From assembly GCF_058153355.1 (NCBI RefSeq), contig NZ_CM177019.1: a stretch of DNA of 64,000 nucleotides. One strand, written 5' to 3'. Position 1 is the stretch's first letter. Every line of letters starts with the position of its first letter. The notes beneath the pieces are model-generated. The model was not told where the DNA came from, searched no databases, and saw nothing but the letters and a program-made list of their open reading frames with translations. Position numbers and translations under genes: made by a program. Shown piece after piece: positions 1 to 57,096 of the stretch.

Positions 1-103
1 CCCCCCACTTCACAAATGCGGAAACAACGCCAGCAATTAGCCCAATGAATGCAGCAAGACCATAACGTCTGCGGTTCGGTGGAGTTTGTTCAAATATATT
101 CAT
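1..103 (-). CDS. yagU: Inner membrane protein YagU (DUF1440), N-terminal 34 codons only; rest of gene lies beyond window start
   Basis: Reverse complement of 1-103 translates [34 protein letters not shown], matching YagU N-terminus; divergent from paoA as in E. coli. Confidence 0.6.
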
Positions 104-508
104 ATTTACCCTGTTTGTTTCATTATGTTGTACACCTCTTCAGGAGTATTCATAAAACAAGATAAATGTAAAGAACTGTATTGTTTTGTATAATGCAATG
201 GTGACTAATCGCCAATTAATATAAGCACCATCATTTCTCCCTATTTTTATGTTAGAAGTGACAACGATTTGCAGGGTGATGCAGAGCTGACAATCACAGG
301 TTTCCTTATCGGTTTTTGCATCGCACAACTAAAGCAATAAACTAGCTCCCGTCATCGGCGAATATGAATTAATTAGCCGGGCTCATAGCTGCATTCGCGT
401 TTTAAGAATAATCCTCCTGCTCTCACCGACTATGCTTAACGTTTAAAAAAGCATCAACACTCTCGCAACGCACTCTTATTTTCCCCTTTAGAATACCGGA
501 GGCCTGGT

Positions 509-1198
509 ATGAGCAACCAAGGCGAATACCCCGAAGATAATCGGGTTGGGAAGCACGAGCCGCACGATTTTAGTTTGACCCGCCGCGATCTGATTAAAGT
601 GAGCGCCGCAACGGCGGCGACCGCCGTGGTTTATCCTCATTCTACGCTTGCGGCAAGCGTTCCGGCAGCTACACCCGCGCCAGAGATAATGCCCCTGACA
701 CTTAAGGTGAACGGCAAAACCGAGCAGCTTGAGGTGGATACCCGAACCACGCTACTGGACGCTTTGCGTGAAAATCTGCATCTGATCGGTACCAAGAAAG
801 GTTGCGATCACGGACAGTGCGGAGCCTGTACCGTGCTGGTCAATGGTCGCAGGCTTAATGCCTGCCTGACGCTGGCAGTCATGCATCAGGGGGCCGAGAT
901 CACCACCATTGAAGGCCTGGGTTCACCAGAGAATCTTCACCCCATGCAGGCGGCCTTTATCAAGCATGATGGCTTCCAGTGCGGCTACTGCACCTCCGGG
1001 CAAATTTGCTCATCAGTAGCGGTGCTAAAAGAGATTCAGGACGGCATTCCCAGTCACGTCACGGTCGATTTGGTTTCCCCTCCAGAAAGAACTGCCGATG
1101 AGATCCGTGAACGTATGAGCGGCAACATCTGTCGCTGTGGTGCATACGCTAACATCCTTGCCGCCATTGAAGACGCTGCGGGGGAGATAAAATCATGA
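509..1198 (+). CDS. paoA: Periplasmic aldehyde oxidoreductase, 2Fe-2S iron-sulfur subunit (Tat-exported)
   Basis: 229 aa; twin-arginine signal ([18 protein letters not shown]); Cys clusters [10 protein letters not shown] and CGYC/CRCG; GGAGG RBS before ATG. Confidence 0.9.
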
Positions 1199-2151
1199 AG
1201 GCGTTTACCTATGAACGTGTGAACACCCCTGCCGAGGCGGCACTTAGCGCTCAGCGCGTACCCGGCGCAAAATTTATCGCTGGCGGGACCAATCTGCTGG
1301 ACCTGATGAAGCTGGAAATTGAAACGCCAACCCACCTTATCGATGTGAACGGGCTCGGGCTCGATAAGATTGAAGTGACCGACGCGGGTGGGCTGCGCAT
1401 CGGCGCACTGGTACGGAACACCGACCTGGCGGCTCACGAGCGCGTGCGTCGTGATTACGCGGTACTCTCCCGCGCTCTGCTCGCTGGCGCGTCTGGTCAG
1501 TTACGTAATCAGGCAACCACCGCAGGTAATCTGCTCCAGCGCACGCGCTGCCCCTATTTTTACGACACCAATCAGCCCTGCAATAAGCGCCTGCCCGGGA
1601 GCGGCTGCGCGGCACTTGAAGGCTTTAGCCGTCAGCACGCGGTGGTAGGCGTAAGCGAAGCCTGCATTGCCACCCATCCGAGCGATATGGCGGTCGCAAT
1701 GCGGTTGCTGGATGCGGTGGTGGAAACCATCACGCCGGAGGGAAAAACTCGCAGTATCACACTGGCTGATTTTTATCACCCACCGGGGAAAACGCCGCAC
1801 ATTGAAACCGCCCTGCTTCCCGGTGAGCTTATCGTTGCGGTGACGTTACCTCCGCCGCTCGGCGGAAAACATATCTACCGCAAGGTGCGCGATCGCGCCT
1901 CCTACGCCTTTGCCCTGGTATCGGTCGCGGCGATTATTCAGCCTGACGGCAGCGGGCGCGTCGCGCTGGGCGGAGTAGCACATAAGCCCTGGCGCATTGA
2001 GGCTGCGGATGCTCAGCTATCCCAGGGGGCGCAGGCCGTGTATGACGCGCTGTTCGCCAGCGCCCATCCCACCGCTGAAAATACCTTTAAACTCCTGTTG
2101 GCGAAGCGAACGCTTGCCTCCGTACTGGCTGAAGCGAGGGCACAGGCATGA
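1195..2151 (+). CDS. paoB: Aldehyde oxidoreductase FAD-binding subunit
   Basis: 318 aa; FAD-binding molybdopterin dehydrogenase pattern ([13 protein letters not shown]); start overlaps paoA stop by 4 nt. Confidence 0.9.
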
Positions 2152-4346
2152 AATTTGATAAACCCGCAGGGGAAAACCCGATCGATCAGCTGAAGGTTGT
2201 CGGTCGTCCCCATGACCGCATCGACGGACCGCTGAAAACTACCGGCACGGCACGCTACGCCTACGAATGGCATGAAGAAGCCCCCAACGCCGCCTATGGC
2301 TATATCGTCGGTTCCGCCATTGCCAAAGGACGCCTCACCGCCCTTGATACGGACGCCGCGCAAAAAGCGCCGGGCGTACTGGCTGTCATTACCGCCAGTA
2401 ACGCTGGGGCACTCGGCAAAGGCGACAAAAACACCGCCAGGCTGTTAGGCGGCCCCACTATTGAGCACTATCATCAGGCCATTGCGCTGGTAGTGGCCGA
2501 GGCCTTCGAACAGGCGCGAGCGGCGGCCTCGCTGGTGCAGGCGCACTATCGCCGTAATAAAGGAGCTTACTCCCTGGCGGACGAGAAACAGGCCGTCAGT
2601 CAGCCGCCGGAAGACACGCCCGATAAAAACGTTGGTGACTTTGACGGGGCTTTCACCTCCGCTGCGGTGAAAATTGATGCTACATACACGACCCCGGACC
2701 AGAGCCATATGGCGATGGAGCCGCATGCCTCGATGGCCGTCTGGGATGGAAATAAGCTTACCCTCTGGACCTCAAATCAGATGATTGACTGGTGCCGCAC
2801 CGATCTGGCAAAAACGCTGAAAGTGCCCGTGGAGAATGTGCGTATTATCTCCCCGTATATCGGCGGAGGGTTTGGCGGCAAGCTATTCCTGAGAAGCGAT
2901 GCGCTGCTGGCGGCCCTCGCCGCCCGTGCGGTGAAACGTCCGGTTAAAGTGATGCTCCCCCGCCCCACTATTCCCAATAACACCACGCACCGCCCCGCCA
3001 CCCTTCAGCACCTGCGTATCGGTGCCGACCAGAGCGGGAAAATCACCGCTATCTCACATGAAAGCTGGTCCGGAAACCTGCCCGGCGGCACGCCGGAAAC
3101 GGCGGTACAGCAAAGCGAATTACTCTACGCAGGGGCAAACCGTCATACCGGCCTGCGGCTCGCCGCGCTTGATTTGCCGGAAGGGAACGCCATGCGTGCG
3201 CCCGGCGAAGCCCCCGGTCTGATGGCGCTCGAAATCGCGATCGACGAACTGGCGGAAAAAGCGGGCATCGATCCCGTCGAGTTTCGCATCCTGAATGACA
3301 CTCAGGTTGACCCCGCCGACCCGACGCGCCGCTTCTCTCGCCGTCAGCTTATCGAGTGCTTGCGCACCGGAGCGGATAAATTTGGCTGGAAGCAGCGCAA
3401 CGCCACACCCGGACAGGTGCGCGACGGGGAGTGGCTAGTCGGCCACGGTGTTGCGGCGGGCTTTCGCAATAATCTGCTGGAAAAATCGGGTGCTCGGGTT
3501 CACCTCGAACAAAATGGCACCGTTACCGTAGAAACGGACATGACCGACATTGGCACCGGCAGCTACACCATTCTGGCCCAGACGGCAGCGGAAATGCTTG
3601 GCGTACCGCTGGAGCAGGTTGCGGTTCACCTCGGCGATTCCAGTTTCCCGATTTCTGCGGGTTCTGGTGGACAATGGGGCGCGAATACCTCCACCTCCGG
3701 CGTTTACGCCGCCTGTGTGAAACTTCGCGAAATGATTGCCTCGGCGGTCGGGTTTGATCCTGAGCAGTCGCAGTTTGCCGACGGCAAGATTACCAACGGT
3801 ACCCGAAGCGCCACGCTACATGAGGCCACCGCAGGCGGCAGACTGACAGCGGAAGAGAGCATTGAGTTCGGCACTCTCAGCAAGGAGTACCAGCAATCGA
3901 CCTTTGCCGGGCATTTTGTGGAGGTCGGCGTGCATAGCGCGACGGGAGAAGTTCGGGTCCGGCGTATGCTCGCCGTGTGCGCAGCGGGGCGCATTCTGAA
4001 TCCGAAAACTGCACGCAGCCAGGTCATTGGCGCGATGACTATGGGCATGGGCGCGGCACTGATGGAGGAGCTGGCGGTAGATGACCGTTTGGGCTACTTC
4101 GTTAATCACGATATGGCGGGGTATGAGGTGCCGGTTCATGCGGATATCCCAAAACAGGAGGTGATTTTCCTGGATGATACCGACCCCATCTCCTCCCCGA
4201 TGAAGGCCAAAGGTGTCGGTGAGCTGGGCCTGTGCGGCGTGAGCGCGGCTATCGCCAACGCGGTGTATAACGCCACCGGTATTCGGGTACGGGATTATCC
4301 CATCACTCTGGATAAGCTGCTCGATAAACTGCCGGATGTGGTTTAA
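2148..4346 (+). CDS. paoC: Aldehyde oxidoreductase molybdopterin-binding large subunit
   Basis: 732 aa xanthine dehydrogenase/aldehyde oxidase family large subunit; translationally coupled to paoB. Confidence 0.9.
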
Positions 4347-22488: not shown

Positions 22489-22650
22489 TGGGGCATCTCC
22501 CTGGACCGAACATAGAATCCCCCCACTAATGCCCCCAACTGCAACTTGATTTCGGTTGAGTCCAGTTGATAACAGGAGACAAGATACGAGCCAGAAACCA
22601 CAGTGTACGGGCTTTTAGTTGATTTCGGTAGACTTGGGAAGAGTTTGAAA

Positions 22651-22726
22651 TGGTGCCGATAATAGGAGTCGAACCTACGACCTTCGCATTACGAATGCGC
22701 TGCTCTACCAACTGAGCTATATCGGC
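22651..22726 (-). tRNA. thrW: tRNA-Thr (anticodon CGU)
   Basis: 76-nt cloverleaf GCCGATATAGCTCAGTTGGTAGAGCAGCGCATTCGTAATGCGAAGGTCGTAGGTTCGACTCCTATTATCGGCACCA read on minus strand; CCA end faces integrase. Confidence 0.9.
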
Positions 22727-22840
22727 CCTGAAAGGACATGTTCACGAGCGTGAATCACGGTGGACAAGGTTAAAACTAACCGGGCGATGCGTCAATGGCC
22801 TTGTGAATCAAATGGCTACTTTTGCATCACCCGGTTTTAT

Positions 22841-24094
22841 TTACGCACGAATGGTGTAATCACCAATGCCGATCCACTTGTAGGTGGTCAGAGCTTCCAG
22901 CCCCATTGGGCCGCGCGCGTGGAGTTTTTGTGTGCTTACCGCAACTTCCGCCCCCAGACCAAACTGGCCGCCGTCGGTAAACCGCGTAGAGGCGTTAACG
23001 TAAACAGCGGAGGAGTCCACTTCGTTGACAAAACGCTGGGCATTACGCATATCGCGGGTCAGGATCGCATCGGAGTGTTGCGTACCGTGTTCACGAATAT
23101 GGGCGATGGCATCGTCAAGATCGCTGACGATTTTGACGTTCAAGTCTAATGACAGGAACTCATCGTCATACTCTTCGGCTTTAACAGCCACCACCTTCGC
23201 TGGGCCTGCCTGCAACTGCGCCAGCGCAGTTGCGTCAGCGTGTAATGTCACGCCGCTTTCCGCCATTTGCTTGCTTAATGCGGGCAGGAAGCTATCTGCG
23301 ATGTTTTTATTTACCAGCAACGTTTCTACCGTATTACACGTGCTCGGGCGCTGAGTTTTCGCGTTGACAATCACTTTCAATGCTTCAGCGATCTCTGCAC
23401 TTTCATCAACGTAAATATGGCATACGCCTATACCACCTGTGATTACCGGAATCGTCGACTGCTCGCGGCACAGTTTATGCAACCCAGCCCCGCCGCGTGG
23501 GATCAGCATGTCGATGTATTTATCCATACGCAGCAGTTCACTGACCAGCGCACGGTCAGGATTATCAATCGCCTGCACGGTACCCGCCGGTAAACCGCAG
23601 GAATTCAGAGCATCCTGAATCACCGCTACTGTTGCAGCGTTAGTGCGACAGGTTTCTTTGCCGCCGCGCAGGATCACTGCGTTACCGGTTTTCAGGCACA
23701 GTGAAGCAACATCAACCGTCACGTTCGGGCGCGCTTCATAAATTACACCAATCACCCCCAGCGGTACGCGACGACGCTCCAGACGCAGGCCGCTGTCCAG
23801 CTCCCCGCCATCAATTACCTGCCCCACCGGATCAGCGAGGTTACACACCTGGCGCACATCATCGGCAATGCTTTTCAGCCGTGCGGGCGTCAGTGCCAGG
23901 CGGTCAAGCATCGCTTCGCTAAGGCCATTGGCACGCGCGTCAGCAACATCCTGGGCGTTAGCATTGAGGATGCTTTCGCTTTGTGCTTCCAGTTCATCGG
24001 CGATTTTTTCCAGCACGCGATTTTTTTCGCGGCTGGAGAGTTGCGCTAATTTATACGAGGCTTGCTTCGCGGAAATGCCCATTTGTTCCAGCAT
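22841..24094 (-). CDS. proA: Gamma-glutamyl phosphate reductase
   Basis: 417 aa, near-identical to E. coli ProA ([26 protein letters not shown]). Confidence 0.95.
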
Positions 24095-24104
24095 CGGCTG
24101 CTCC

Positions 24105-25208
24105 TTAACGGGTAATCATATCATCACGGTGAACGGCAACCGGGCCGTATTCATATCCCAGTATTGCATCAATTTCTTGCGAGTGGTGTCCGGCAATACG
24201 GCGTAATGCATCGCTGTTGTAACGACTGACGCCGTGGGCGATATCGCGACCTTCGAGGTTGCAAATGCGGATGACTTCACCACGCGAGAAATTGCCAGTC
24301 ACGCTTTTGATGCCTTTCGGCAACAGGGAGCTACCGCGTTCAAGAATGGCGGCGGTTGCCCCTTCATCTACCGTGATTTCACCCGCAGGCGGCGCACCGA
24401 AAATCCAACGTTTGCGGTTTTCAAGCGGAGTCGCCTGGGCATGGAACAGCGTACCGACGGAAATACCTTCCATCACATCACCAATGACACCCGGCTTACT
24501 GCCCGCGGCAATAATGGTGTCGATACCCGCGCGGCAAGCCACGTCAGCGGCCTGCAATTTGGTGCTCATGCCGCCGGTTCCAAGACCTGAAACGCTATCA
24601 CCGGCAATCGCGCGCAGTGCGTCATCAATGCCGTACACATCTTTAATCAGTTCTGCCTGCGGATTGCTACGCGGATCAGCGGTATACAAACCTTTTTGAT
24701 CGGTCAGCAACAACAGTTTATCGGCACCCGCCAGAATCGCCGCCAGCGCCGAAAGGTTATCGTTATCGCCGACTTTAATCTCTGCAGTAGCGACAGCATC
24801 GTTCTCATTGATTACCGGAACGATGTTGTTATCGAGCAGCGCACGCAAGGTGTCGCGGGCGTTCAGGAAGCGTTCACGGTCTTCCATATCAGCACGAGTT
24901 AGCAGCATCTGCCCGACGTGAATGCCATAAATCGAAAACAGCTGTTCCCACAGTTGAATCAGTCGACTCTGCCCTACCGCCGCCAGAAGTTGTTTCGAGG
25001 CGATAGTCGCTGGCAGTTCCGGGTAACCCAGGTGCTCACGTCCGGCGGCAATCGCCCCCGACGTCACAATTACAATCCGATGCCCGGCGGCATGTAGCTG
25101 CGCACACTGGCGAACAAGTTCAACGATATGGGCACGGTTCAGGCGGCGCGATCCGCCTGTTAGCACACTGGTGCCGAGTTTTACCACCAGCGTCTGGCTG
25201 TCACTCAT
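24105..25208 (-). CDS. proB: Glutamate 5-kinase
   Basis: Start moved to [16 protein letters not shown] (track start is an upstream alternative codon); 367 aa as in E. coli ProB. Confidence 0.95.
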
Positions 25209-25396
25209 GATTCTCTGCCATTCAATTTTAGGGAAAATGATATCAAACGAACGTTTTAGCAGGACTGTCGCCGGTTGCCAACCATCTGCGAGCAAAGCAT
25301 GGCGTTTTGTTGCGCGGGATCAGCAAGCGTAGCGGCAGTTGTTTACGCTTTTATTACAGATTTAATAAATTACCACATTTTAAGAATATCATTAAT

Positions 25397-25422
25397 CTGT
25401 AATATATCTTTAACAATCTCAG
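25397..25422 (+). promoter_or_regulatory. Pho box (PhoB binding site) of the phoE promoter
   Basis: CTGTAATATATCTTTAACAATCTCAG about 75-100 bp upstream of phoE, matching the known Pho box arrangement. Confidence 0.5.
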
Positions 25423-25495
25423 GTTAAAAACTTTCCTGTTTTCAACGGGGCTCTCCCGCTGAATATTCGCGCGTTAATTAAAATCAGGAATGAAA

Positions 25496-26551
25496 ATGAA
25501 AAAGAGCACTCTGGCATTAGTGGTGATGGGCATTGTGGCATCGGCATCCGTACAGGCCGCAGAAATATATAACAAAGACGGTAATAAACTGGATATCTAT
25601 GGCAAAGTTAAAGCCATGCATTATATGAGCGATAATGACAGTAAAGATGGCGACCAAAGTTATATCCGTTTTGGTTTTAAAGGCGAAACACAAATTAACG
25701 ATCAACTGACCGGTTATGGTCGCTGGGAAGCAGAGTTTGCCGGAAATAAAGCAGAGAGTGATACTGCTCAGCAAAAAACGCGTCTTGCTTTTGCCGGGTT
25801 GAAATATAAAGATTTGGGTTCTTTCGACTATGGTCGTAACCTGGGGGCGCTGTATGACGTGGAAGCCTGGACCGATATGTTCCCGGAATTCGGCGGCGAT
25901 TCCTCCGCGCAGACCGACAACTTTATGACCAAACGCGCCAGCGGTCTGGCAACGTATCGGAACACCGACTTCTTCGGCGTTATCGATGGTCTGAACTTAA
26001 CCCTGCAATATCAAGGAAAAAACGAAAACCGCGACGTTAAAAAGCAAAACGGTGATGGCTTCGGCACGTCATTGACATATGACTTTGGCGGCAGCGATTT
26101 TGCCATTAGTGGGGCCTATACCAACTCCGATCGCACCAACGAGCAGAACCTGCAAAGCCGTGGCACGGGCAAGCGTGCAGAAGCATGGGCAACAGGCCTG
26201 AAATACGATGCCAATAATATTTATCTGGCAACTTTTTATTCTGAAACGCGTAAAATGACGCCAATCTCTGGCGGCTTTGCCAATAAGACGCAGAACTTTG
26301 AAGCAGTCGCTCAATACCAATTCGACTTTGGCCTGCGTCCATCGCTGGGTTATGTCTTATCGAAAGGGAAAGATATTGAGGGCATCGGTGATGAGGATCT
26401 GGTTAATTATATCGATGTCGGTGCTACATATTATTTCAACAAAAATATGTCAGCGTTTGTTGATTATAAAATCAACCAACTGGACAGCGATAACAAATTA
26501 AATATTAATAATGATGATATTGTCGCGGTTGGGATGACCTATCAGTTTTAA
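25496..26551 (+). CDS. phoE: Outer membrane phosphoporin PhoE
   Basis: Start at [21 protein letters not shown] signal peptide; porin ending ..VAVGMTYQF; AGGA RBS. Confidence 0.95.
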
Positions 26552-26559
26552 TGGAGATT

Positions 26560-26589
26560 GCCGGATGCGGCGCATCCGGCACTTTTCAC

Positions 26590-26590
<1 letters not shown>
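26560..26590 (+). terminator. Rho-independent terminator shared by convergent phoE and crl
   Basis: Hairpin GCCGGATGCGGCGCATCCGGC followed by ACTTTTCACT. Confidence 0.6.
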
Positions 26591-27048
<458 letters not shown>

Positions 27049-41372: not shown

Positions 41373-42881
<1,509 letters not shown>

Positions 42882-47472: not shown

Positions 47473-48849
47473 TTAGCTGCACATTTCCAGCACCGAATCA
47501 AAAATCTCGGCCCCGGCGGAAATGACTTTCAGATTGGCTTCATAAATTTGTTGATAGGTGATCAGGTTCACCGCCTCTTCGTCCATGCTGACGCCGCTGA
47601 CACTGCTCTGCTGGTTTTGCGCCTCAGAATAAACATTGGACGCGGCAGTCACTTCGGTCTGGTTTTGCTGAGTGTAAATGCCGATATTGCTGATGATTGA
47701 CGAGCACGCTTGCCCGACCGTCACGCTGCCGAGGTTGGCTATCTCCAGCGGCTCAGTGGAGATGTTGATCAGCGCCTGCAGGTTGTCACTGTTGCCGCTT
47801 TCGTCCGGCGAACTGGAGAACGCCAGTTCATCAGCGGTGATATCCGGGTTAACGGTCAGCGGGCCATCGGCATTACTGGCATCGTAAATAAACAGCGGCT
47901 CGCCGGGGTTACCGTTGAGATCGTAGCCCTGCGCCAGCTGGTTGTTGACCGCATCGGCAAACTGCGACGCCATGCTGTTGATGGTGTCGGTCAGCGGCGT
48001 CAGGACGTCGTTTTGATAATCAAAAAGTGCGCCTAATGAACCGCCGGTGTCGGTGGTCATCGTCGAGGTGGTTCCGGCGAAGGTCAGCGACATGGTCGGC
48101 GTGCCATCGGCGTTGGTTTCCAGCGCGATGGTCGAGCTTTGCTGCCCGCTCACCAGCGGCTGACCGTTTTGCAGGGTAACGTTGTAGTTGCCCTGGTCGT
48201 CGATATTGACCTGCACATCCATCATTCCGCTGAGTTCTTCCACCATCTGGTCACGGGCGTCGTACAGCGCGGAGGCGTTATCCCCGTTGGCTTCGGCCTG
48301 GGCGATTTGCTGGTTATAGCTGGCGATGCCGCTGGTGAGGGTGTTAATTTGCGACACCATCGCCTGCTGCTGGCTGATGATTTCCGTGCTTTGCGAGTCG
48401 ATGTAATCCAGCGTGTTATCGATACGCAACGACAGCGCCCCGGCTTCGCTGATCACCTGCTCGCGCAGGGCAGAATCATCGGGGCTGGTGGTCGCTTCGT
48501 TGAGGGCCGCGAAAAAGTTATCGAACCCGCCGCTCAGGCTGCTGTTATCGTCGCTCAATACCGCTTCCAGTTGCGTGAGATACCCTTGCTGGGTGTTGTA
48601 ATAGCCGTAATCGCTGGCGGCATACCACACCTGATTCACCTGATACTGGTTGGAGACGCGACGAATGCTGTCGACCTGCACACCGTTTCCGGCGCTGTTC
48701 GGCGACCCGCCGCTGGCACCGATAGTGCTGATCTCCGCCACCTGGCGGGTGTAGCCCGTGGTCATGGCGTTAGCGGTGTTTTGCGCCGTGACGTTCAGCT
48801 CCACCTGCGCGGTTGATGCGCCGCTGTAGCCGATGTTAATCATGTCCAT
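47473..48849 (-). CDS. lfgK: FlgK-like hook-associated protein 1
   Basis: 458 aa; N-terminal rod/hook motif (TAQNTANAMTTGYTRQ) and FlgK C-terminus. Confidence 0.8.
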   Translation of the reverse strand: MDMINIGYSGASTAQVELNVTAQNTANAMTTGYTRQVAEISTIGASGGSPNSAGNGVQVDSIRRVSNQYQVNQVWYAASDYGYYNTQQGYLTQLEAVLSDDNSSLSGGFDNFFAALNEATTSPDDSALREQVISEAGALSLRIDNTLDYIDSQSTEIISQQQAMVSQINTLTSGIASYNQQIAQAEANGDNASALYDARDQMVEELSGMMDVQVNIDDQGNYNVTLQNGQPLVSGQQSSTIALETNADGTPTMSLTFAGTTSTMTTDTGGSLGALFDYQNDVLTPLTDTINSMASQFADAVNNQLAQGYDLNGNPGEPLFIYDASNADGPLTVNPDITADELAFSSSPDESGNSDNLQALINISTEPLEIANLGSVTVGQACSSIISNIGIYTQQNQTEVTAASNVYSEAQNQQSSVSGVSMDEEAVNLITYQQIYEANLKVISAGAEIFDSVLEMCS

Positions 48850-49042: not shown

Positions 49043-50269
<1,227 letters not shown>

Positions 50270-50307
50270 TGATAAGCGTAGCGCATCAGGCAATCTGGCA
50301 CCAGACA

Positions 50308-51021
50308 TCACGCCGCATCACTGTCGGCATCGGGTACGCCAAACTGGCTAATCATGGTGAACGGCACTTCGCCTACACCGGCAACGTTAAGCACCGGAGA
50401 GCTGCCGTCGAGCGGGATGCGCACATCTTCCACTTCGCCGGAGACTTCAATCGGTACTTCTTCTTCCCCGGTATTGGTCACCACCGAGACGTCGTAATCG
50501 CCCGGCGGGATGCCGTAATCCGCCGGGTTAATCGAGAAATCCACTTGGCCTGGCCCAACCGACGAACTCCCTTCCGGGATCAGCGAGACGGTGTAGTCAT
50601 CGCCCGCAGCATCGGTAAAGTGGAGATCGGCGGTGGTACAGGCGTCGTCCAGCGTGGCGCGACCGTTAATGGTCTGGTCACTCACCTGCAAGGCGGTGGT
50701 CTGCACCATAATGTCGTCGCCCACCAGGTTGCCGAGCGCCATCACCTGAATGTTGCTCATCAGCACCGCGTTGGTATTGGCCTGCACGCTCATCTCTTCC
50801 ATCATCGCCACCTGCGCCATCGACGAAAGCTGGTCGATATATTCGGTGGCATCGGTCGGGTCGGTCGGGTCCTGGTTTTGGATCTCAGCGACAAACAGCG
50901 TCAGGAAAGTATCGACGGGCGAGCTATCGCTGCTGCTTGTCGTGTCGCTGGCTGCCACATTATTGCTTTCCGCCGTGGCGGTCGGTTGCGGCGATTGCGC
51001 ATTCAGCGCCAGGGTATTCAT
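50308..51021 (-). CDS. lfgD: FlgD-like hook capping/assembly protein
   Basis: 237 aa; FlgD-type motif FLTLFVAEIQNQDPTDPTD. Confidence 0.8.
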   Translation of the reverse strand: MNTLALNAQSPQPTATAESNNVAASDTTSSSDSSPVDTFLTLFVAEIQNQDPTDPTDATEYIDQLSSMAQVAMMEEMSVQANTNAVLMSNIQVMALGNLVGDDIMVQTTALQVSDQTINGRATLDDACTTADLHFTDAAGDDYTVSLIPEGSSSVGPGQVDFSINPADYGIPPGDYDVSVVTNTGEEEVPIEVSGEVEDVRIPLDGSSPVLNVAGVGEVPFTMISQFGVPDADSDAA

Positions 51022-53533: not shown

Positions 53534-54463
53534 ATGAGTTTTATTGAATGTTACGAACCGGAATATGTGCGCAATTTTATGGCGCAATATCCCGATTCGC
53601 CTTTATACGTCAGCAAGGTGTGGAAGAATGAGATTCGCCAGAGCCTGGCATTGACCGATATTGCCAGTTGCAAAGCAGTGCTCAACGATGCCAGGGCCTT
53701 TGAATTACAGCTTACCTATCGCCCTGTGGAAGAAAATGCCGCAGCGCTCTCCGCGCGCGATGTGATAGTCAACCAGATAATTTTGAGCACCCTCACGCTC
53801 CCCGATTTAACCCCAGAGCTTTCACTGTATGCCGTCGGGATTTTGCTCTCCCGCGCCCGTAAAATGCCGGGCAGAGACGGCGATACTCTCGCCCGGCTGA
53901 CAGCACTGCCGCAGGCGCTGGCCGATCACGCCCAAATAGGCACGTTACAGGCACAGTTCGCCCAGCTACCGCCTGTGCCACTGCTGGCGCGCCAACTGGT
54001 GACGCTGCTCGGGAGTTTTGCATTTGACTGGTCGATACTGCCAGAAAGCCCGCGCAAAAATTCGCTGCCGTTGCAGGTAACCTTGCTAACGCTGCATGAC
54101 GCCAACAGCGAAGCCCTGATGCAGCAGCAGCTACAGACACAGTGGCAAACTACCTGGCAACAGCATTTTGCCACCGCTCCGTGGATGATGCGTAACTGGC
54201 TGATTTACCGGGTTTATCACGATGTGATTGGCCAGGCAGACGGGGCGGGTTATTTCCCGCTGGTGTGTGACTTTTACCTCATCCGCACGTTAATCAGTTT
54301 ATGGACGCTGGATGATTCACCGCTGCGGCAGGAGGATATTTTCGCCCTCTTCGCGGTGTTTGAACGCTGGCGAGTGAGTGAAAATGCCGTGCTGATTCGC
54401 CAGCAAATTCAGTCATTATGTGCCGCCGACCCGCTGCTTTCAGCGTTTTCGTTGCTGCCGTGA
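53534..54463 (+). CDS. Hypothetical protein (Flag-2 variable region)
   Basis: About 310 aa ORF from first ATG; no recognisable motif. Confidence 0.4.
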   Translation: MSFIECYEPEYVRNFMAQYPDSPLYVSKVWKNEIRQSLALTDIASCKAVLNDARAFELQLTYRPVEENAAALSARDVIVNQIILSTLTLPDLTPELSLYAVGILLSRARKMPGRDGDTLARLTALPQALADHAQIGTLQAQFAQLPPVPLLARQLVTLLGSFAFDWSILPESPRKNSLPLQVTLLTLHDANSEALMQQQLQTQWQTTWQQHFATAPWMMRNWLIYRVYHDVIGQADGAGYFPLVCDFYLIRTLISLWTLDDSPLRQEDIFALFAVFERWRVSENAVLIRQQIQSLCAADPLLSAFSLLP

Positions 54464-54482
54464 GTCGCTCTGTGCGCGCTTT

Positions 54483-54594
54483 GCCCCTCACCCTAACCCT
54501 CTCTCCAAAGGGGCGAGGGAACCGATCGAGCACGGTGTTAAAATCGGCGCTGGTTTTCTCCCTCTCCCTGTGGGAGAGGGCCGGGGTGAGGGGC
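54483..54594. repeat. GC-rich palindromic intergenic repeat pair (BoxC-like)
   Basis: GCCCCTCACCCTAACCCTCTCTCCAAAGGGGCGAGGGAACC and CTCCCTCTCCCTGTGGGAGAGGGCCGGGGTGAGGGGC forming long-range inverted repeats. Confidence 0.4.
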
Positions 54595-54651
54595 ATCAGC
54601 GCGCACATTCAGCACCTCCATCACATTCACCCACTAACTCACCCAAACACC

Positions 54652-57096
54652 ATGCCAACACCAAGCATCATCAAAACACTCGCCACTCACCGCGAAAAAC
54701 CGTTCGTCAGCGTCGTCACGCCAACCTGGAATCGTGGCGCATTTCTGCCGTACCTGCTCTATATGTACCGCTATCAGGACTACCCGGCAGACCACCGCGA
54801 ACTGGTCATCCTCGACGACTCACCGCAAAGCCATCAACACATCATCGACCGCCTGACCAATGGCACGCCGGAAGCCTTTAACATCCGCTACATCCATCAC
54901 CCGGAAAAACTGCCGCTGGGCAAAAAACGCAATATGCTCAACGAACTGGCGAGCGGCGAATACATCCTTTGCATGGACGATGACGACTATTACCCGGCAG
55001 ATAAAATCTCTTACACCATCGGCATGATGCAAAAACACCGGGCGCTGATCTCCGGTTCCGACCAGATCCCCATCTGGTACAGCCATATCAACCGCATCTT
55101 TCAAAGCCGCAGCTTTGGCCCGCATAACATCCTCAACGGCACCTTTTGCTATCACCGTAACTACCTGAAAAAGCACCACTACGATGATGATTGCAATTTA
55201 GGCGAAGAGAAAAGTTTCACCGACAATTTCAGTGTTAACCCGCTGCAACTGCCCGGCGAGCGCACGATTTTGTGTATCTCGCACAGCCACAACACCTTTG
55301 ATAAAGACTTTATTCTCGGGGCCAGCACGCCTGTAAATGCCGAACTGAGCGATATCGTCACCGATCCGCTGCTACGCAATGCTTATCTGAGTCTGCATAA
55401 CGCCACTCATCACCAGGCGATCAACCATCAGGCGATCGATCAGATAGTTGTTGTGAATCTGGATAAACGCCCGGATCGTTTACGGCAGATCCGTGAAGAG
55501 CTGGCATTGCTGCATATTCCGCCTGAAAAAATTACCCGCCTTGCCGCCTGTGAAGATGAAAACGGCCAACGGGGACGACGCCAGTCGCACTTGCAGGCGC
55601 TGCGCCTGGCGCAACAGCACGGCTGGCAAAATTACCTGCTGCTGGAAGATGACGCGGTTATTCTCAAGCAGGAGAAACATATTCAGGTACTGAACACGCT
55701 GCTGGCGAGCCTGGCGAAAATTCCCTGGGAGGTGATGAGCCTTGGTGGCGAAATTTCGCAAGGAACGATGCTGAAAAGTTTGCCGGGGCTGGTACACGCG
55801 CAGGACTGCCGCAAAGTGTGTGCTTATCTGGTGAACAGCCGCTACTACCCACAACTGGCGCAGCAGATGAGTAACGATGAGCACTCGCTGGAAGACGGCT
55901 GGCAGCCACTGCTGCGCACCGACAAATGGCTGGCCTGTTACCCGAGCCTTAGTTATCAGCGACCGGGCTTTAGTGATATCGAGAAAAAAGCGACTGATAA
56001 CATTAACCACTACTTCAATAAGTTACCCGTAGCCACCAAGCCATCCACATTACCCATCGCCGACACCATCGGCTTTTTTATGGAAACCTCCTTCCACTAC
56101 GCGCTCTATCGCCCAATCATCACCGCCCTACAGGCGCAGGGGCAGAGTTGCACGCTGGTGATCAACGATCGCGTGTTTAAACCATTTTTGGGTGAAATGC
56201 TGGAAACACTGAAAAGCATCGACGATCCACAGCTTAAAGGTATGCGCTTGTCTGAGATGCAGGAGCACAGTCAGCGGGTGAAATGCCTGGTCAGCCCCTA
56301 CCACACGCCCGCGCTCAATGGCATTTCACCCGTGAACGTTCGCGCCATGTACGGCTTAGCCAAAGAGACGTGGAACCACGCCGACTGGAACCGTTTTTAT
56401 CAGCGCATTTTGTGTTACAGCCACTACAGCCAGCAGGCACTAAAACATTTCGGTAGCGCAAAAGTGGTCGGCAACCCGCGCTTCGACGCCTGGCATAACG
56501 GCACGTTTGACCGCGCCCTGCCGGAAAATATCCAACCCGATTCCCGTAAACCTACGGTGCTCTACGCCCCCACGTTTGGCGCATTAAGCTCCCTGCCCCA
56601 CTGGGCAGAAAAATTGGGGCGCTTGAGCGGTAATGTAAACCTGATTTGCAAACTGCACCACGGCACCAGCTCGCGCCCGGAAGAAGCCGCATCGCTGACC
56701 CTGGCACGCAGGCATTTAAAACAGCGCACCGACTCCGTCCGCCACACGCTGGCGCTGCTGGCAAAGGCCGATTACGTGCTCACCGATAACAGCGGCTTTA
56801 TTTTCGATGCTATCCACGTTGATAAGCGGGTGATCCTGCTCGACTTTCCGGGCATGACGGAACTGCTCGACGGTGAGAAAAGTTATTCCACACCGGAGAG
56901 CGCCGACCAGCGAATCCGCGAAATATTACCGGTGGCTCATGATATGGCTGAGCTGCGTTACTTATTGTCAGAGGCGTTTGACTGGGGGGCGGAACAGGCG
57001 CGGCTTACGGAGATTCGCCATCACTATTGTGACGCGTTTATGGATGGCAAGGCGGGAGAACGGGCGGCGATGGCGATTGTGGAGGCATTGGGTTAA
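54652..57096 (+). CDS. Three-domain glycosyltransferase: GT2 + GT25-like + TagF-like CDP-glycerol glycerophosphotransferase domain
   Basis: Start moved past the repeat to MPTPSII; GT2 DxD (MDDDDYY), GT25-like middle domain (VVVNLDKRPDR), C-terminal VLYAPTFG motif resembling TagF YAPTWR. Confidence 0.7.
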   Translation: MPTPSIIKTLATHREKPFVSVVTPTWNRGAFLPYLLYMYRYQDYPADHRELVILDDSPQSHQHIIDRLTNGTPEAFNIRYIHHPEKLPLGKKRNMLNELASGEYILCMDDDDYYPADKISYTIGMMQKHRALISGSDQIPIWYSHINRIFQSRSFGPHNILNGTFCYHRNYLKKHHYDDDCNLGEEKSFTDNFSVNPLQLPGERTILCISHSHNTFDKDFILGASTPVNAELSDIVTDPLLRNAYLSLHNATHHQAINHQAIDQIVVVNLDKRPDRLRQIREELALLHIPPEKITRLAACEDENGQRGRRQSHLQALRLAQQHGWQNYLLLEDDAVILKQEKHIQVLNTLLASLAKIPWEVMSLGGEISQGTMLKSLPGLVHAQDCRKVCAYLVNSRYYPQLAQQMSNDEHSLEDGWQPLLRTDKWLACYPSLSYQRPGFSDIEKKATDNINHYFNKLPVATKPSTLPIADTIGFFMETSFHYALYRPIITALQAQGQSCTLVINDRVFKPFLGEMLETLKSIDDPQLKGMRLSEMQEHSQRVKCLVSPYHTPALNGISPVNVRAMYGLAKETWNHADWNRFYQRILCYSHYSQQALKHFGSAKVVGNPRFDAWHNGTFDRALPENIQPDSRKPTVLYAPTFGALSSLPHWAEKLGRLSGNVNLICKLHHGTSSRPEEAASLTLARRHLKQRTDSVRHTLALLAKADYVLTDNSGFIFDAIHVDKRVILLDFPGMTELLDGEKSYSTPESADQRIREILPVAHDMAELRYLLSEAFDWGAEQARLTEIRHHYCDAFMDGKAGERAAMAIVEALG

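Follow-up and report, generated by a model that had tools for sequence, protein, structure and literature searches.

Within a 64,000-nt stretch of Escherichia DNA, analyzed as a whole and hereafter called the window, a long GC-rich palindrome separates a methylase gene from a glycosyltransferase gene, and a mechanically drawn reading frame runs straight through it. The locus raises the question of whether this palindrome belongs to the glycosyltransferase gene, regulates it, or is a mobile or neutral repeat that happens to lie beside it, and to which of the known bacterial repeat families it should be assigned.

The palindrome and the start of the glycosyltransferase

The plus-strand order of the genes surrounding the palindrome is flgA, flgM, flgN, a FliB-like lysine-N-methylase gene, the repeat itself, and a GT2 glycosyltransferase gene. 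The locus is variable region 1 of the flag-2 (secondary flagellar) locus, a region in which flagellin-modifying enzymes, namely GT2 glycosyltransferases and FliB methylases, are typically encoded (De Maayer et al. 2020, PMC6993521). The methylase CDS occupies 53534..54463 on the plus strand (its RefSeq orthologues are annotated as lysine-N-methylase, with 930 nt), and its stop codon is found 7 nt ahead of the element, which is thus contained in the 188-bp spacer between the methylase stop at 54463 and the glycosyltransferase start at 54652. Regarding the host, the segment at 22500–26600, comprising a tRNA-Thr gene (22654–22726, minus strand), proA, proB, phoE and crl, reached a best full-length identity of 95.7% among 5426 E. 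coli genomes, and hence the genome probably belongs to an Escherichia lineage other than E. coli sensu stricto. The best E. coli identity of the methylase–glycosyltransferase segment was 94.7%.

Elsewhere in the same locus, between lfgD (50308–51021) and lfgK (47473–48849), an IS110-family transposase gene stands in place of lfgE to lfgJ, and for this reason the flag-2 locus appears to be decayed in this genome. Two ORFs of the window, at 49092–50072 (minus strand) and 41852–42832 (plus strand), had Pfam matches, to IS110-family transposases, that agree in kind and in score. REP-like sequence adjoins both copies, at 50255–50295 in the one case and, in the other, as two matches to the Rfam family naRNA4 (CssrE, a REP-derived nucleoid-associated RNA) at 41376–41453 and 41581–41658 on the plus strand, both above the gathering score.

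The first-pass annotation of the window had reported a pair of GC-rich palindromic units at 54483–54594 that could pair over about 110 nt to form an extensive stem-loop. The pair is present, with a real extent slightly larger than was claimed. A repeat search identified inverted arms of 40 nt each at 54482–54521 and 54556–54595, with 73% complementarity and a gap of 34 nt. Beyond these arms lies a perfect 10-bp outer inverted pair, TGTGCGCGCT at 54471–54480 and AGCGCGCACA at 54598–54607, so that the element as a whole comprises a 137-nt imperfect palindrome at 54471–54607. The stem-loop was likewise borne out by folding, as the region 54465–54612 formed, as RNA, one long hairpin of −97.3 kcal/mol (z = −10.3), compared with −56.2 ± 4.0 kcal/mol in 200 dinucleotide shuffles, none of which was as stable. 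This long hairpin was retained when the element was folded within a 301-nt context. The minus strand of the element folded as RNA at −94.3 kcal/mol (z = −12), and the element as single-stranded DNA at −51.7 kcal/mol (z = −8.6). Additionally, the motif CCCTCTCCCNNNGGGAGAGGG, allowing up to three mismatches, was detected twice in the 64-kb window, both times inside the element, against an expectation of 0.

The mechanical ORF at 54418–57096 (892 aa) does pass through the repeat, as had been observed in the first-pass annotation, where the start was moved to the first ATG past it, at 54652. Orthologues, distant homologues, a repeat-free allele and the domain architecture all uphold this shift. 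The RefSeq orthologues in three E. coli genomes encode 814, 814 and 812 aa and start at the equivalent ATG, just past the element. The product of the repeat-free E. coli allele has an N-terminus (MQTLIKTLVTHR) that aligns with the one retained in the window (MPTPSIIKTLATHR), with MQTLIKTL in the former facing MPTPSIIKTL in the latter. Homologues from Enterobacter, Pantoea, Burkholderia and metagenomes start 0–25 residues ahead of the conserved strand KPFVSVVTPTWNR (KPFVSVV), and residue 98 of the 892-aa ORF, or residue 20 when counted from M79, is the first of the Pfam Glycos_transf_2 domain. Together, these comparisons establish ATG 54652 (M79 of the 892-aa ORF) as the start of the GT2-family glycosyltransferase, whose CDS at 54652..57096 on the plus strand encodes 814 aa; the element is non-coding and no part of this gene.

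An uninterrupted ORF from the ATG at 54418 would also be expected if the repeat were translated as a true N-terminal extension, a reading that we consider scarcely credible. The 78-residue extension was absent from the homologues examined, with the exception of a single gene-caller product whose start falls within the repeat, so that homology speaks against a start at 54418; the extended frame takes in 3′ sequence of the methylase gene; the RefSeq orthologues begin at the downstream ATG; and in the repeat-free allele just 46 nt lie between the two genes ahead of the start codon. With the start at 54652, the glycosyltransferase has a C/A-rich leader at 54608–54651 on the plus strand, which contains 1 G in 44 nt and is predicted to be unpaired. 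No Shine-Dalgarno sequence was found in these 44 nt, and no obvious one in the repeat-free E. coli allele either.

For annotation purposes, the glycosyltransferase should be taken from 54652 (814 aa) and the repeat masked, since it misleads gene callers. A spurious 104-aa ORF on the minus strand (54294–54608) also extends across it, and a public protein cluster with 72 member sequences comprises a product that begins inside its right-hand unit, the type B unit described below (MGEGRGEG...).

Membership in the BoxC repeat family

Judged by its sequence, the element at 54471–54607 is an ordinary copy of an already known inverted pair, an identity that the first-pass annotation missed. The underlying repeat carries three historical names for one sequence, namely BoxC, PIT (for potential intrastrand triplex, the name used by Hoyne and Maher) and TMECO (Holder et al. 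2015, PMC4666352). As BoxC, it was described in the 1990s as a palindromic E. coli repeat (PMC4666352) and has been given as 56 bp long with 32 copies (PMC2267715); Table 1 of PMC4666352 contains 23 K-12 copies. The published pattern reads CCCTCNCCC N3-6 GGGNGAGGG N3 GGGNGAGGG, and the intrastrand triplex formed by K-12 sequences has been demonstrated by CD and NMR (PMC4666352). The right unit of the window pair (54560–54592) fits this pattern exactly and is the same as K-12 copies 1 and 4 save for the final base. On the minus strand, the left unit (54485–54519) fits the pattern with one substitution and differs by one base from K-12 copies 7, 11 and 15. This extra substitution of the window left unit relative to BoxC (GGAGAGAGGG for GGGGAGAGGG) would introduce one added mismatch into the predicted intrastrand triplex.

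The units had been described in the first-pass annotation as having two arms each, and this description stands in part: the inverted repeat exists, but each unit is a three-block motif with conserved flanks and not a simple two-arm hairpin. The blocks follow one another as a C-rich block (CCCTCNCCC), a loop, a G-rich block (GGGNGAGGG), a 3-nt loop and a second G-rich block (GGGTGAGGG). The whole BoxC doublet, delimited by its inverted repeats and its RNA and DNA folds and assigned to neither strand (54471..54607), begins with the type A outer flank TGTGCGCGCTTTG at 54471..54483 (plus strand), which holds the left arm of the 10-bp outer repeat; BoxC units elsewhere in E. coli have a similar flank. 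It is followed by the type A BoxC/TMECO unit, which has TTA as its second loop and reads CCCTCGCCCCTTTGGAGAGAGGGTTAGGGTGAGGGG on the minus strand (54484..54519), and by the type A inner flank AACCGATCGAGCAC (54520..54533, plus strand), common to the K-12 copies at hrpB-mrcB, ygfF-gcvP and alx-sstT. The doublet centre GGTGTTAAAATCG, at 54534..54546 on the plus strand, constitutes the tip of the long hairpin. On its other side, and again on the plus strand, the type B inner flank GCGCTGGTTTTCT (54547..54559), common to the K-12 type B copies (GGTTTTCT ahead of CCCTCTCCC), precedes the type B unit CCCTCTCCCTGTGGGAGAGGGCCGGGGTGAGGGG (54560..54593), whose second loop is CCG, and the type B outer flank CATCAGCGCGCACA (54594..54607), which holds the right arm of the 10-bp outer repeat. 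The type A and type B units are separated by a 40-nt spacer.

A comparison of the five K-12 pairs yielded a flank consensus with GTGCGCGC...(GAT)G on the outer side, GACCGATCGAGCAC on the type A inner side and GC.C.GGTTTTCT on the type B inner side. The matches of the window element to K-12 copies extend over 55–61 nt, past the core on both sides, and the 61-nt match to the K-12 hrpB-mrcB copy (96.7% identity) takes in the type B outer flank. These conserved flanks bring each unit to about 56 bp, the length first given for BoxC, and account for the perfect outer pair of 10 bp as well.

K-12 harbors five inverted pairs, each composed of one type A and one type B unit (Holder et al., PMC4666352). 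The window pair obeys the same A+B rule, with TTA on the left and CCG on the right, located on opposite strands. Its divergent arrangement is that of the minority in K-12 (one of five, at lldD-trmL), whereas the other four K-12 pairs are convergent. A core-motif and pattern scan found no BoxC units in the 64-kb window other than the doublet at 54471–54607. Nothing essential differs from BoxC in the core, the A and B variants, the inverted A+B pairing, the flanks, the intergenic chromosomal site, the multi-copy occurrence or the association with variable intergenic regions, and the family identity of the element is settled by this correspondence.

Other classes of small bacterial repeats share some of these properties. 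REP/BIME elements occupy the same intergenic niche, as seen in the phnK-phnL slot discussed below, but belong to another sequence family; in the window, the naRNA4 matches are at 41376–41658 and not at the element, and neither of the REP tags GTAG and CGTC, nor their complements, occurs in 54465–54612. The 103-bp repeat designated "RU-3" by Delihas was considered and set aside, its published sequence being a REP/BIME element, different from the BoxC doublet. When Rfam was searched at gathering thresholds, no family was matched at the element; under permissive settings, eukaryotic microRNA hairpins appeared far below threshold and were taken as chance matches.

A resemblance is also seen with the MITEs ERIC/IRU (RU-1) and YPAL (RU-2) (Delihas 2007, PMC2759123), which are likewise small, intergenic, stem-loop forming and occasionally captured by ORFs. 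The element also exhibits MITE-like terminal inverted repeats, composed of the perfect 10-bp outer pair and the extended imperfect arms. It differs from MITEs in having no visible target-site duplication, as the flanks GAGTCGCTC and TTCAGCACC have no direct repeat in common, and in having no known parent insertion sequence. The repeat-free allele is too diverged near the site to provide an exact insertion boundary or to reveal a target-site duplication. In the literature, no transposase or integrase remnants have been reported near TMECO motifs (PMC4666352).

Copies and structural alleles in E. coli

Using the 148-nt element as a blastn query, we detected the family in 5408 of the 5426 complete E. 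coli genomes, the median number of places being 17 per genome. In total there were 82,797 places, with 82,741 on chromosomes and 56 on plasmids. These matches assign the element to a dispersed repeat family, as the first-pass annotation had suspected, and demonstrate that further copies are indeed present in related genomes. The 48-nt spacer region behaves differently from the units, being essentially single-copy per E. coli genome. Its matches elsewhere are weak (about 79–84% identity) and lead to a paralogue in the phnK-phnL spacer of E. coli 90-3040, which is full-length, includes the spacer and shares 88% identity with the window element; orthologous E. coli elements share 96–97%. In K-12, the phnK-phnL spacer has a REP/BIME-type repeat exactly at the position of the 90-3040 doublet, with flanks that are alike, and the K-12 BoxC unit of the phn region lies between yjdP and phnP. 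Hence, two repeat families occupy the same phnK-phnL intergenic slot in different strains.

The site itself is structurally polymorphic among genomes. The methylase–glycosyltransferase locus was found in 1279 E. coli genomes, 695 of which (e.g., strains 042 and SWHEFF_68) have the doublet in the window orientation and 30 of which (e.g., 2020CK-00188) have it in the opposite orientation, three-unit and truncated forms included. The doublet is absent from about 550 (e.g., Ecol_867, with a small hairpin instead). The three-unit form, arranged as B′, A, A, was observed in strain EC974, one of the 30 genomes with the opposite orientation. The O157:H16 strain Santai has a symmetrically truncated form, with the outer block missing from each unit, which is the form described as the "palindrome effect" (Holder et al., PMC4666352). 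The spacer consequently has at least five alleles in E. coli (window orientation, flipped, three-unit, truncated and repeat-free), a polymorphism that agrees with the reported association of TMECO motifs with intergenic variability (PMC4666352). Among the roles suggested in the first-pass annotation (transcriptional attenuator, mRNA stabilizer or recombination site), the last is the best fit because of these several structural alleles at the site. The natural allelic series available at this single site (present, flipped, triplicated, truncated and absent) could be used to address questions of expression and rearrangement.

The occurrence of both orientations at one E. coli site, in 695 and 30 genomes, respectively, raises the idea of an inverton, in which the spacer would flip between the BoxC arms and render glycosyltransferase expression, and with it flagellin glycosylation, phase-variable. 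The flip is genuine, and no artefact of alignment, since the 2020CK-00188 element shares 91% identity with the reverse complement of the window element, compared with the 76% that the window element shares with its own reverse complement. The same alignment, however, leaves a 9% sequence difference between the two orientations, which points to old fixed alleles, or possibly to independent insertions or gene conversions, and argues against a fast switch. Moreover, the element has no promoter-like site within it, no recombinase gene is adjacent (the neighbors being flagellar, methylase and glycosyltransferase genes), and perfect identity between the arms extends over just 10–11 bp. An inverton is therefore very improbable. 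Regarding the origin of the flipped form, the opposite-orientation element shares 91% identity with the orthologous elements and 87–88% with the phnK-phnL paralogue; sequence comparison weakly favors inversion in place over re-insertion or gene conversion.

Function and wider distribution of the doublet

We next consider what the doublet might do for its neighbors. No plus-strand sigma-70-like promoter was found around or inside the element, and a sigma-28 scan near it returned no good match. The stem ends at 54607 and continues directly into TTCAGCACC, with no U-tract; a terminator scan found nothing after the stem, the sole terminator-like match being weak and internal to the element (54533–54552). 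According to the summary of the work of Hoyne and Maher given in PMC4666352, the elements block DNA polymerase in vitro and, as far as that summary goes, neither act as promoters or terminators nor affect RNA polymerase. The negative assays, as they are outlined there, may not have covered a doublet with a hairpin of about −97 kcal/mol. In addition, BoxC motifs have been reported to have no relation to gene function or distance (Holder et al., PMC4666352). Because no U-tract follows the stem and the published assays, as summarized, detected no promoter or terminator activity, the attenuator and mRNA stabilizer roles initially suggested for the palindrome are not favored.

The main rival reading is a cis-regulatory RNA element, in which the hairpin within the operon message would block 3′-to-5′ exonucleases or serve as a processing site and thereby set the methylase/glycosyltransferase ratio. 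In some operons, REP hairpins stabilize the message upstream of them and reduce expression downstream, and the doublet would likewise make the upstream message more stable and glycosyltransferase expression lower. Several features would suit such a role: on the sense strand, the hairpin has a very high stability, and it is retained in context; the five genes from flgA to the glycosyltransferase are co-oriented with short gaps; and the scans predicted no promoter in the spacer that separates the methylase from the glycosyltransferase. What keeps this reading alive is the small hairpin of the repeat-free allele (GGCCGGTTTTCCCGGCC), which is found at the equivalent place in the same spacer, as though an intercistronic stem-loop might be wanted there. 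Nevertheless, about 550 E. coli genomes do without the element, and others have it flipped, triplicated or truncated, variation that would be unexpected of a tuned regulatory element. The repeat also lies beside unrelated genes with no functional pattern, and the assays of Hoyne and Maher, in so far as they are described in PMC4666352, weigh against this role as well. Furthermore, the flag-2 locus of this genome, without lfgE to lfgJ, appears decayed, and selection on the methylase–glycosyltransferase operon is consequently doubtful here. Taken together, these observations make a cis-regulatory hairpin unlikely.

The doublet is, very probably, a neutral or selfish repeat that serves its neighboring genes in no dedicated way, and such effects as it has would be by-products. 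We infer that a copy of the family arrived in the methylase–glycosyltransferase spacer, where it codes for nothing and would exert no regulatory role. The first by-product is the stop-free frame through the doublet, by which ORF callers are misled. The second would be a very stable hairpin in the message, if the doublet is transcribed with the upstream genes. The third comes from the inverted arms, which turn the spacer into a rearrangement hot spot; variability of the site is the one effect that the element can be seen to have. One observation goes against a purely neutral reading: among the matches listed in the scan described below, the core is nearly invariant in very distant bacteria, which hints at some selected property.

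To survey doublets beyond E. coli, one genome per bacterial species (298 Gb in total) was scanned for divergent pairs with a self-complementary pattern of 28 specified bases, CCCTCACCCNNNCCCTC N65-95 GAGGGNNNGGGTGAGGG, for which far less than one chance match is expected by a rough estimate that assumes uniform base composition. The scan revealed divergent BoxC-type doublets of 100–129 bp at at least 120 loci. Isolates among the matches listed belong to Pseudomonas, Enterobacter, Mitsuaria, Variovorax, Rhizobium, Asticcacaulis, Gemmobacter and a cyanobacterium, and metagenome-assembled genomes among them represent Verrucomicrobia, Chloroflexi, Planctomycetes, Nitrospirales, Thermodesulfobacteriota and Peregrinibacteria; the Proteobacteria listed comprise Alpha-, Beta-, Gamma- and Delta- members. 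The wide distribution of the single motif had already been reported, in a study that did not discuss its inversion (Holder et al., PMC4666352). In two genomes, the whole doublet is itself repeated: Pseudomonas sp. EaCA-3 has 18 copies with a pairwise centre identity of 0.77, compared with 0.55 in shuffled controls, and a Rhizobacter metagenome-assembled genome has 12 copies with a centre identity of 0.89, again compared with 0.55 in shuffled controls.

This organization resembles that of REPINs (Bertels and Rainey 2011, PMC3116915), in which inverted short repeats and a spacer likewise form a long hairpin, a likeness of architecture only. It extends to the repetition of the doublet with its spacer as a whole, as seen in the Pseudomonas and Rhizobacter families and in the E. 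coli paralogue. Unlike REPINs, however, BoxC doublets are not built from REP sequences, have no link to any known RAYT-type transposase and, in Enterobacter sp. Ag1, do not have conserved centres.

These comparisons suggest, tentatively and with the balance still tilted against it, that the replicating unit may be the doublet of about 115–140 bp, spacer included, and not the 36-nt triplex motif. Such doublets would then form a REPIN-like non-autonomous family present in many phyla, copied as a unit, mobilized by a putative enzyme and capable of being flipped or replaced in place. The suggestion draws on the multi-phylum matches, the conserved centres, the two orientations at one site, and a likeness of arms and flanks between the Pseudomonas and Escherichia doublets. 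Specifically, the Pseudomonas family and the window have in common the asymmetry between a TAA-arm and a CTG/CCG-arm, the inner flank GACCG.TCGG.GCA and, at the end of the outer flank, GGCAC, and the Pseudomonas inner flank GACCGTTCGGTGCA resembles the type A inner flank of the window.
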